In this document: positions 56,682 to 62,713 of the stretch, in pieces | How positions within the stretch are numbered: position 1 is the first letter of the stretch | Layout of the letters: every line of letters starts with the position of its first letter | From: Gemmatales bacterium | Lineage (GTDB): Bacteria; Planctomycetota; Planctomycetia; Gemmatales; HRBIN36 | NCBI GenBank assembly: GCA_041640595.1 | Contig: JBEPZY010000007.1 | Coordinates: forward strand, 178,346 to 242,345 | DNA: 64,000 bases | Direction: 5' to 3' | Notes under the pieces: generated by a model | Seen by the model: only the letters and a program-made list of their open reading frames with translations | What the model was told of the DNA's origin: nothing | Databases searched by the model: none | Made by a program: the position numbers and the translations under genes

Positions 56682-57569
56682 ATGACGGCACGGATTCTCG
56701 ACGGTAAGCAATTAGCCGAAAACATTCGCCGCGAGCTCCAGGCGGAGATCGAAACCTTTGTGCGACAAACGGGGAAGCGACCCGGTCTGGCGGCGGTGCT
56801 GGTAGGGGATAATCCTGCCAGTCAGGTTTACGTTCGTAACAAACGCCGGGCCTGTGAACAGGTCGGTATTGCCAGCTGGCTGTACCATCTGCCGCAGGAG
56901 ACCACCGAGTCTCAGTTGCTCGAGTTGATTGGGCAACTGAACGCCGACCCTAACGTGAGCGGAATTCTCGTGCAGTTACCTTTGCCGCCGCAAATCCGCC
57001 AGGAGAAAGTTCTTCGGACAGTGCTTCCGAGCAAAGACGTGGATGGATTTGGCCCGGAAAATCTGGGTTTACTGGCCGCGGGCCAGCCCCGCTACGTTCC
57101 CTGCACACCCCTGGGAGTGCAGCAATTGCTTCGGCGTTACGATATTCCCATAGCCGGCCGTCATGTGGTAATCCTGGGTCGCAGCACAATAGTCGGTAAA
57201 CCACTGGCTTTGCTCCTGCTCCAGAGATCGCCCGATGCCGACGCTACCGTGACCGTTTGCCATAGCCGCACCGAGAACCTCCCGGCCATCACGCGGCAGG
57301 CCGACATACTGATTGCCGCTATCGGTCAGCCACGTTTTGTGAAAGCTGATATGGTGAAAGCTGGAGCAGTCGTCGTGGACGTTGGTATAACCCGGCTTGC
57401 CGACGGGAGTTTGGTTGGGGACGTGGATTTTGAGACGGTGTCGCAGGTAGCTTCCGCCATCACTCCGGTTCCTGGGGGCGTCGGCCCAATGACCGTTGCT
57501 ATGTTGTTATACAACACTTTTCGTGCCGCACAGTTGCAGTGGGGTATGCAGCAGTCGCCGGGTTCGTAG
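56682..57569 (+). CDS. folD: methylenetetrahydrofolate dehydrogenase/cyclohydrolase
   Basis: PAS.VYV.NK, GILVQLPLP, KDVDG, PCTP, GRSTIVGKP, TPVPGGVGPMT. Confidence 0.97.
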   Translation: MTARILDGKQLAENIRRELQAEIETFVRQTGKRPGLAAVLVGDNPASQVYVRNKRRACEQVGIASWLYHLPQETTESQLLELIGQLNADPNVSGILVQLPLPPQIRQEKVLRTVLPSKDVDGFGPENLGLLAAGQPRYVPCTPLGVQQLLRRYDIPIAGRHVVILGRSTIVGKPLALLLLQRSPDADATVTVCHSRTENLPAITRQADILIAAIGQPRFVKADMVKAGAVVVDVGITRLADGSLVGDVDFETVSQVASAITPVPGGVGPMTVAMLLYNTFRAAQLQWGMQQSPGS

Positions 57570-57945
57570 GCAACGTCTGCCAACAGCCGGTCCAAATCAC
57601 TAAGCCGGGGCGAATTAGCGAACGTGGACAACAGCCCGCTGGATGTGCCAAACGGAACCGCAGCCAGCGTCGGCCAATGAGTCCAAGCGACGACTCGCTA
57701 GGCGTTTGCTTCTCGCCAGGTGCTTGCTTCTATCAGGCAACGACGTCAGTTACATGCTAAATTTCATCCGACCTTCGGTTGTGGACATCAACGCGATTGC
57801 TGTAAGTCAGGAGACAATGCAGGCCAGGGTCAACCAATTAGCTAAAGCCACGGCTAAGCAGGTTCACTTGTGACCGGCTTCTCGTGAGCAATGCAGGTCA
57901 ACCAGTTGGCTAGAGCGAAGGCCAAACGCATTTGAAGGCCATACA

Positions 57946-58056
57946 GTTTCAATCGCCGGGCTGTCGCGGTCGCTGGTCAATGGAGACGGCGGATAACGAC
58001 AGGGTGCGGTGTCAGATTTGTTTCAATCGCCGGGCTGTCGCGGTCGCTGGTCAATG
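57946..58056 (-). CRISPR. single-spacer CRISPR-like unit (37-bp repeat, 37-bp spacer, 37-bp repeat); no cas genes in window
   Basis: Identical copies of GTTTCAATCGCCGGGCTGTCGCGGTCGCTGGTCAATG at 57946-57982 and 58020-58056; reverse complement ends ATTGAAAC; spacer 57983-58019. Confidence 0.5.
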
Positions 58057-58994
58057 ATTTCGATGCGATAGTTATTGCCAATTCGGCGAACGGAGAAAAT
58101 CGTGACCAGTTGCCGTCGTTCCAGTTCATCTTCCGTCAAACCCCGATAACTCAGTTCGCGTTCCGCCAGGGCTTTTTCGAGTTCGACCGGGAAGAAAACG
58201 AAAATCCGATTGGGTTTGAAATCGAGCCGCAGAGCATCGGCCAGGGCAGCGACAGAGTTCGGATTATCGTCCGTCCAGTGAATCAGACGCCGACTCAGAG
58301 CCGCAAAAGCGTCCTGATTTTCCAGGGTGGGCTTGAGGTTTCGTTCGGGCAAATTGCGGTAGAACAGATATAAACCGTCCGGTCGCGGCACAACTACCAT
58401 GGCCTGCAATTCGATCAGGCGATTGAGATATTCACGGGAGGAATTGTAGGGCATGAGCACTTTCCAGCGGTGCATACGGCGAGCGCGAGCGGATTGCACT
58501 CCCGGGCCTACACCAGAACCGATACCCGGGCCGGTTCCCGAACCAAGACCGCCTCCGGTTCCCGGTCCACCACGTCCTGGATCTCCTGGTTTACCACGCG
58601 GCCGTTCCGGTTGAGCTTCGGGTGGTTTTTCCACAACCGTTGGCGGAGCCTTTTCCGGTTCCGGCTCAGCTTCAGGTTTGACTTCTTCCGGTTTGCTCGG
58701 CGGTGGCTGTTCGACAGCATCCGGTGGACTGCCATCACCTTCACCGCCTCCGCCGGCATCTATCACATCCATAAGCGGCGGTTCTGGGTTGTACGACCAG
58801 AATCCGCAGCCACCATACGACGTGATGACCGTGAATCCGAGTATCAGAAACAGATGCAGCAACACCGCCGAACCTAACGACAGCGGCAATTCGTGATGCG
58901 AGGAGTATTTTTGATAGAGTGGTTCCTCGTGGAAAATGGGGGAGCGGCTACTTGCGGGCGATCGGTTATCCAAGGCTGGAACCTGGCTGGCCAT
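58023..58994 (-). CDS. single-TM hypothetical protein with Pro/Glu- and Gly-rich linker (TonB-like architecture)
   Basis: SAVLLHLF TM helix, PPPSKPEEVKPE linker, GGPGTGGG.G.G repeat, globular C-terminus. Confidence 0.75.
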   Translation of the reverse strand: MASQVPALDNRSPASSRSPIFHEEPLYQKYSSHHELPLSLGSAVLLHLFLILGFTVITSYGGCGFWSYNPEPPLMDVIDAGGGGEGDGSPPDAVEQPPPSKPEEVKPEAEPEPEKAPPTVVEKPPEAQPERPRGKPGDPGRGGPGTGGGLGSGTGPGIGSGVGPGVQSARARRMHRWKVLMPYNSSREYLNRLIELQAMVVVPRPDGLYLFYRNLPERNLKPTLENQDAFAALSRRLIHWTDDNPNSVAALADALRLDFKPNRIFVFFPVELEKALAERELSYRGLTEDELERRQLVTIFSVRRIGNNYRIEIIDQRPRQPGD

Positions 58995-60943: not shown

Positions 60944-61123
60944 CCCGACAACCCAGCCAGGATCGTGGACATATCCGGCAAATTCATTCGCTCTTGCCTG
61001 CCAGCAAAAAGCCTCGAAATTTTGCGTAACACCAAGACGGGGAGCTTGCATGTCGATCACTAGGACGACGGCACCGTCCCCCAGACTGGAAATTTTGCGC
61101 AACACAAGGACAGGGAGCTTGCC

Positions 61124-62557: not shown

Positions 62558-62713
62558 CTGTCCCCGTTAGTCGGAAGCAAGGATAGCTGAAGCTGCTGTC
62601 CCCATTTGCGTGGCCAATGCATGCTGTCCCCGTTAGTCGGAGGCAGAGCCAACCGTTCTCGTCGCCCGATTCACCTCGGCAGTACGGTGCCGCAAAAAAT
62701 TTTGTCCCCTTTT
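62558..62713. repeat. cluster of short (C/T)TGTCCCC repeats
   Basis: CTGTCCCCGTTAGTCGGA(A/G)GCA at 62558 and 62624, CTGTCCCCATTTG at 62596, TTGTCCCCTTTT at 62702. Confidence 0.6.

Follow-up and report, generated by a model that had tools for sequence, protein, structure and literature searches.

A Probable Natural Off-Target Cas1-Cas2 Integration at the 3' End of a Gene in a Gemmatales Bacterium

Introduction

Neo-CRISPR loci, which arise by noncanonical spacer integration, were reportedly defined in 2018 by Nivala, Shipman, and Church using the type I-E system of Escherichia coli. In the available portions of the published texts, off-target integration is described for E. coli cells overproducing Cas1-Cas2 (10.1101/148544, PMC7054753). 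The same portions mention circumstantial evidence of off-target integration in two other species and describe the occurrence and persistence of off-target spacer integration in nature as unclear (10.1101/148544). For Pyrococcus furiosus Cas1-Cas2 acting on plasmid DNA in vitro, the accessible part of the report states that off-target sites share features with the CRISPR repeat (PMC6698737). Regulatory mini-arrays and single repeat units of the CreA/CreR type are presented, in the excerpted text of 10.1101/2023.03.03.530964, as lying in or near cas loci, with an upstream repeat highly similar to that of the array and a partial promoter target.

Here, we describe a site in a 64,000-nucleotide stretch of DNA (referred to as the window) from a Gemmatales bacterium, at which the last 37 bp of a gene are found on both sides of a 37 bp insert. 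As in the E. coli neo-CRISPR loci, a spacer-sized insert at a repeat-like chromosomal site outside the arrays gives a repeat-spacer-repeat unit. However, the E. coli loci, as presented in the portions cited above, are laboratory products of overproduced Cas1-Cas2, whereas the present site is wild and strain-polymorphic, has the geometry of a reverse transcriptase (RT)-associated module, and is one of hundreds left by two native integrases. The P. furiosus off-target sites are repeat-like in the accessible text, as are the scars described here on average and this site strongly; that work was performed in vitro on a plasmid, whereas the present scars are a fixed chromosomal record. Like the CreA/CreR mini-arrays, the site has a single spacer between two repeats and is separate from the main array. 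It differs from those mini-arrays, as far as the excerpted text describes them, in that its repeat is host coding sequence, its contig carries no cas1, the two copies are identical to each other and share 57% (21/37) of their positions with the native repeat, and the search for a seed target was negative. A literature search, with most subscription papers outside its coverage, returned no report of hundreds of fixed natural scars and none of scars of this kind left by an RT-linked module. In laboratory E. coli, the mechanism is already known. The present site contributes an empty allele and the strongest candidate for a neo-array that works.

Results and Discussion

Structure of the Site and Its Host Gene

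The original prediction of two exact 37 bp copies around a unique 37 bp segment was borne out in full: the copies are identical at 37/37 positions with a period of 74, and their flanking bases differ. The features of the site and its surroundings are as follows.

57946..57982, minus strand: distal copy of the 37 bp target, that is, the target-site duplication, now 3' non-coding (37/37 identical)
57983..58019, no strand given: the 37 bp insert, a candidate ectopic spacer, absent from the empty allele
58020..58056, minus strand: gene-proximal copy of the 37 bp target, comprising the last 10 codons, the TGA stop, and 3 further bases
58023..58994, minus strand: host gene (ORF, 323 aa), reading frame intact after insertion
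57828..57925, no strand given: probable older scar of the 30 bp class in the same intergenic region, with copies at 57828 and 57896
56682..57569, plus strand: folD, the convergent neighbor bounding the intergenic region

Translation of the 323-aa ORF confirmed that the gene-proximal copy encodes the last ten residues (IDQRPRQPGD) and the stop codon. No Pfam or NCBIfam family matched the host protein, and its nearest clusters, mostly from Planctomycetota, consisted of hypothetical proteins. By eye, its N-terminus includes a hydrophobic stretch, and a linker rich in Pro and Gly could be recognized. Neither the repeat nor the insert had a further copy in the 4.45 Mb genome at up to 11 mismatches, the best match of the insert in its own genome having 12. 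The hairpin of the repeat was weak, as had been noted from the sequence (−5.9 kcal/mol, z of −0.53 relative to shuffles).

In sequencing run X1, which possibly represents the source sample, the 37-nt repeat piece had a depth of 128, compared with 58–75 on its flanks, and a separate 97-nt piece crossed the insert at a depth of 66. The roughly doubled depth of the repeat piece, together with the piece spanning the insert, ruled out an assembly artefact.

The probable older scar next to the site has a period of 68 and copies that are 24/30 identical, and it was also found in contig L021 of a close strain. Two further scars were seen in the window, at 61010–61122 (period 73) and 62558–62645 (period 66); the former gave the second-best match to the native 37-nt repeat (19/37).

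Empty Alleles in Related Strains

An exact 22-mer search of metagenome contigs led to a single locus, contig L021, whose flanks match the window at 98.7% and 96.4% identity. L021 carries the 37-mer in a single copy, and exactly 74 bp are absent from it. The same 74-base skip, corresponding to an empty site, was detected in three of the four runs examined (X2, X4, and X5, from three studies), the short side of the joint being only 26 letters long in X5. It is on this skip that the distal copy is based in the reads, and the 37 letters fit on either side of it. Run X1 showed no skip, the filled allele was seen in X1 alone, and no empty allele was seen in X1, the one population carrying the filled allele. 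The runs holding this DNA were mostly hot-spring metagenomes. X2, an RNA library with the empty site, had flat depth over the region and was uninformative on transcription.

Orthologs of the host gene were present in the same-genus genomes G001–G003, and in all three (3/3) the gene end held one homologous copy of the stretch. This single copy and the empty allele together indicate that the repeat is duplicated host coding sequence and not an imported CRISPR repeat. The empty single-copy allele, whose existence the original prediction had proposed to look for in relatives and reads, was thus found in L021, X2, X4, and X5; none of these four other strains or samples held a large element at the site. 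The insertion at the gene end is recent.

CRISPR-Cas Systems of the Genome

The prediction had placed cas1 and cas2 elsewhere in the genome, and two of each were found there (genome G000). On contig C8, cas1b, cas4, cas3, cas5, cas7, and cmr1-6 adjoin an array with a 30-nt repeat, which comprises 341 spacers, mostly of 36-37 nt, on C8 and C10. On contig C1, cas2, a stand-alone RT gene, and cas1 are followed by an array with a 37-nt repeat and 246 spacers, of which 99 have the modal length of 37 nt. The 37+37 geometry of the site is therefore that of the commonest unit of the RT-linked C1 array, and the native repeat of this array also shares its 3' end with the site, in agreement with the prediction. 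The last 11 bases are common to both native repeats. Effector genes of types I-B and III-B are present, as are one full-length cas6, alone on C5, and a cas6 fragment at the edge of contig C23. Matches to cas1, cas2, and cas6 thus lie on C1, C8, C5, and C23, and the site itself lies on C7.

Several observations were made on these loci. On C8, the open frame of the I-B cas1 (L016:1441-2817) continues for about 155 aa ahead of the Cas1 domain; this part matched no family and may reflect an over-long start call or be real. The only full-length cas6 (L022, C5:156811-157386) is located downstream of a repeat run with a 75 bp period. A small contig carries a third array, which is short and has a 30-nt repeat of another sequence (L019, C20:1210-1581).

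A Genome-Wide Set of Integration Scars

Ungapped two-copy repeats with periods of 40–140 were listed throughout the genome, and arrays, tandem repeats, and a palindromic element family were removed, leaving 393 of 1756 two-copy pairs. Among these, 104 had periods of 65–68 and 130 had periods of 72–76, with 8–40 pairs at each peak period compared with a background of about one pair per period. The two peaks match the periods of the two native arrays, which places the site in a class of off-target integration scars. Additional peaks outside this background were seen at 126 and 131–135. A fixed-window caller returned 184 and 206 at a threshold of at least 24/30, and fitted duplication lengths peaked at 30-31 and, more broadly, at 36–38. 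From these data, we compiled strict sets of 116 and 84 scars (200 in total) and a loose set of 534 that contains some false calls. The site therefore belongs to a population of off-target integration scars that numbers 200 by the strict count and about 500 by the loose one. The copies of the scars are 75%–100% identical, the gene-end site being among the few perfect ones, and this range indicates that scars accumulated over a long time.

Scars were densest on C2–C4 and sparse on C1, C6, and C7, with 0–11 per 20 kb tile of G000. The palindromic element family, with pairs 83–100 bp apart, is abundant on C2–C5, C8, and C9. At C4:238250-238700, we observed a four-copy run with a 73 bp period in which two insert variants alternate and part of the unit has an end resembling that of the native repeats; it looks like a scar or array fragment that recombination has amplified.

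Two direct links between scar inserts and the spacer pool were found, both in the 30 bp class. In one, a scar insert was 30/31 identical to a native spacer. The other involves contig C15, which is the target of 33 native spacers (with the 5' flank CCN in 26) and matched three inserts of the 30 bp class but 0 of 1602 shuffles. Of these three inserts, two come from copies of a single scar, and the repeat of the third is near-native, so that one clear off-target event remains for C15. No insert of the 37 bp class could be tied to C15. This contig (L112, 9.6 kb) is a small element with about ten ORFs, and the two of its proteins that were tried revealed no relatives in viral contigs. An orphan mini-array far from the arrays (C3:328836-328932) consists of two near-native 30-nt repeats around a spacer that matches C15.

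The spectrum was compared with that of G002, a genome that is 93% complete and has one cas1 and a 37-type repeat, using a partial, non-random sample of 647 kb. This sample contained 18 pairs at periods 72–77; inspection by eye assigned 2 to array units and 6 to coding repeats, so that about 10 remained, including a cluster of three. At periods 65–68, it contained 1 pair, of the coding type, compared with about 28 expected at the G000 rate. The comparison fits each scar class following its own integrase. No period peak was seen in parts of G004 (382 kb), G014 (200 kb), and G027 (200 kb), samples so small that absence from these genomes is not implied. Two genes of the HU/IHF family are present, which gives no support to the idea that low fidelity results from a lost host factor.

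Similarity of the Site to the Native Repeat

In register with the native 37-nt repeat, the site is identical at 21/37 positions, including the last 9 bases. It ranked first of 84 scars by overall repeat match when first copies were scored; the second copy of the scar at C8:77217 also reached 21. On the 3' end common to the native repeats, it scored 10/11 and tied for first among 534 with a near-native repeat pair. Scars other than this site also matched the repeat of their own array, in register, better than nearby DNA did (11.59 versus 10.71 and 9.48 versus 8.34), and neither mean was reached in any of 500 resamplings; with this site included, the mean of the 37 bp class was 11.7 against a control of 10.7. 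Ends reading AAC occurred in 14/168 cases in the 37 bp class compared with 2.6 expected, and in 8/232 in the 30 bp class compared with 3.4 expected, the latter being within the null range.

At the same time, 257 genomic positions reach a match of at least 21/37, and 102 of the 107 ATTGAAAC sites outside arrays have no 37 bp duplication. These numbers imply that the preference for the repeat is weak and that likeness is insufficient for integration. The likeness of this site to the native repeat probably drew the integrase. Leader mimicry was rejected, as the upstream coding DNA was identical to the end of the native leader at only 14/60 positions.

Origin of the Insert and Position at the Gene End

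The search for an origin of the insert, which the original prediction had proposed, was negative. The insert had no match among the 592 native spacers or in the phage collection and 0 exact 18-mer hits in viral contigs, and its 8 exact 18-mer hits in genome contigs extended to 19–25 of 37 letters, the level expected by chance. Thus, no protospacer or self-target was found in its own genome, the native spacers, viral contigs, phages, or genome contigs, and its first 11–13 nt had an exact seed match nowhere else in the genome. The identity of the focal insert as a spacer accordingly rests on its geometry.

Genes were called with a crude caller (3004 genes, 77% coding). Of the 200 strict scars, 166 were intergenic, 16 had a stop codon within the copy that kept the gene whole, 9 were inside called genes, and 9 touched starts or stops otherwise. 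Random targets fell inside genes in 75% of cases, in intergenic DNA in 20-21%, and across a stop in 1.5–2.5%. Per target, stop-spanning and intergenic sequences were scarred at about the same rate, and selection for placement at gene ends was therefore rejected. These equal rates indicate that scars at gene ends are among those left after purifying selection, and no function has to be invoked for them; the position of this site looks tolerated, not selected.

Proposed Mechanism and Alternative Explanations

We infer that the site arose by recent natural off-target full-site integration by Cas1-Cas2 of the RT-associated adaptation module serving the C1 array, a reading to which we assign a probability of about 0.9. 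It is based on the observed geometry, the empty allele, the presence of a cognate integrase and array, the genome-wide class, and the likeness to the repeat. The last 37 bp of the gene would by chance have resembled the native repeat, above all its 3' end. Following the established chemistry of Cas1-Cas2, the integrase would then have joined a 37 bp prespacer to the two borders of this stretch on opposite strands, and gap repair would have duplicated the 37 bp. The event appears to have been tolerated because the gene-proximal copy kept the codons and the stop, leaving the protein unchanged. The repeat-insert-repeat unit is most likely a neutral passenger. The ectopic integration at a repeat-like site that had been proposed is thus strongly supported by the empty allele, the cognate genes, and the array geometry, whereas the guide or regulatory RNA proposed to follow from it is not: no protospacer, self seed match, or leader likeness was found, and gene ends were scarred at an approximately neutral rate.

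A working neo-array would require that transcription of the host mRNA read through the unit, that Cas6 cut the pseudo-repeats, and that the crRNA load into the III-B or I-B effector. Several features are compatible with this. An 8-nt handle lies 5' of the insert on the mRNA strand, in sense orientation behind the gene, with no terminator-like site between the stop codon and the unit; of the 11 terminal bases common to both native repeats, 10 occur at the site; both effector types are encoded in the genome; and the presence of one full-length cas6 and an edge fragment suggests that Cas6 may read mainly the end of the repeat. When folded in isolation, a copy also forms a stem arm that runs through G29, with A30 bulged out, as in the native repeat. 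However, the native four-pair C/G stem is not kept, the fold of the pseudo-repeat is no better than that of shuffles, and other pairings replace it in a 141-nt context. Moreover, no 11-nt seed match was found elsewhere in the genome, and only X1, the possible source run, showed the filled allele. A promoter-like site at 58081-58054 on the minus strand was weak and within chance (2 found, 1.0 expected). We consider a functioning unit unlikely on balance, and it is equally doubtful that a CRISPR array is being born here in the wild, with the host mRNA as its leader, the gene end as its Cas6 repeat, and a crRNA released from the 3' UTR.

Off-target integration also has to be weighed against explanations that do not involve it. 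Gene 3' ends are common integration targets, and an element that integrated here with a 37 bp duplication and was then lost almost entirely could leave an attL/attR or transposon scar, an alternative already named in the original prediction. The single-copy site without an element in four strains or samples contradicts this, the residue is exactly spacer-sized and unique in the genome, and hundreds of unrelated sites at two array periods would remain unexplained; we therefore regard such a scar as very improbable. Replication slippage, or repair with captured filler, occurs at low rates in general, but slippage yields head-to-tail copies without a unique insert, and a background of about one pair per period differs greatly from the 8–40 at each peak. 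The period spectrum thus speaks against the chance duplication that had also been considered, which is highly unlikely. Recombination of a detached mini-array fragment of foreign or phage origin into the site would account for the classic handle at its end, and the near-native two-repeat unit at C3:328836 shows that similar units exist in this genome. Here, however, other species conserve the repeat as the coding end of the host gene, the empty allele has a single copy of it, and it resembles the native repeat at only 21/37 positions, so that this origin is exceedingly improbable.

Conclusions

The site is an unusually clean natural case of off-target integration: its borders are exact, four other strains or samples carry the empty allele, and the same genome encodes a cognate integrase. 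The scar set records, in vivo, which sequences two native Cas1-Cas2 complexes recognize when no leader is present. It also shows the mutagenesis cost of such events, since 75% of random targets but only 9/200 scars are inside genes. As the closest mimic of the native repeat, in sense orientation behind a gene, this site is the one best suited to asking whether scars can turn into working arrays. If an array were indeed being born here, off-target adaptation would steadily supply new guide loci, and RT-recorded inserts outside arrays as well, to a lineage in which two integrases have scattered hundreds of spacers through the non-coding DNA.
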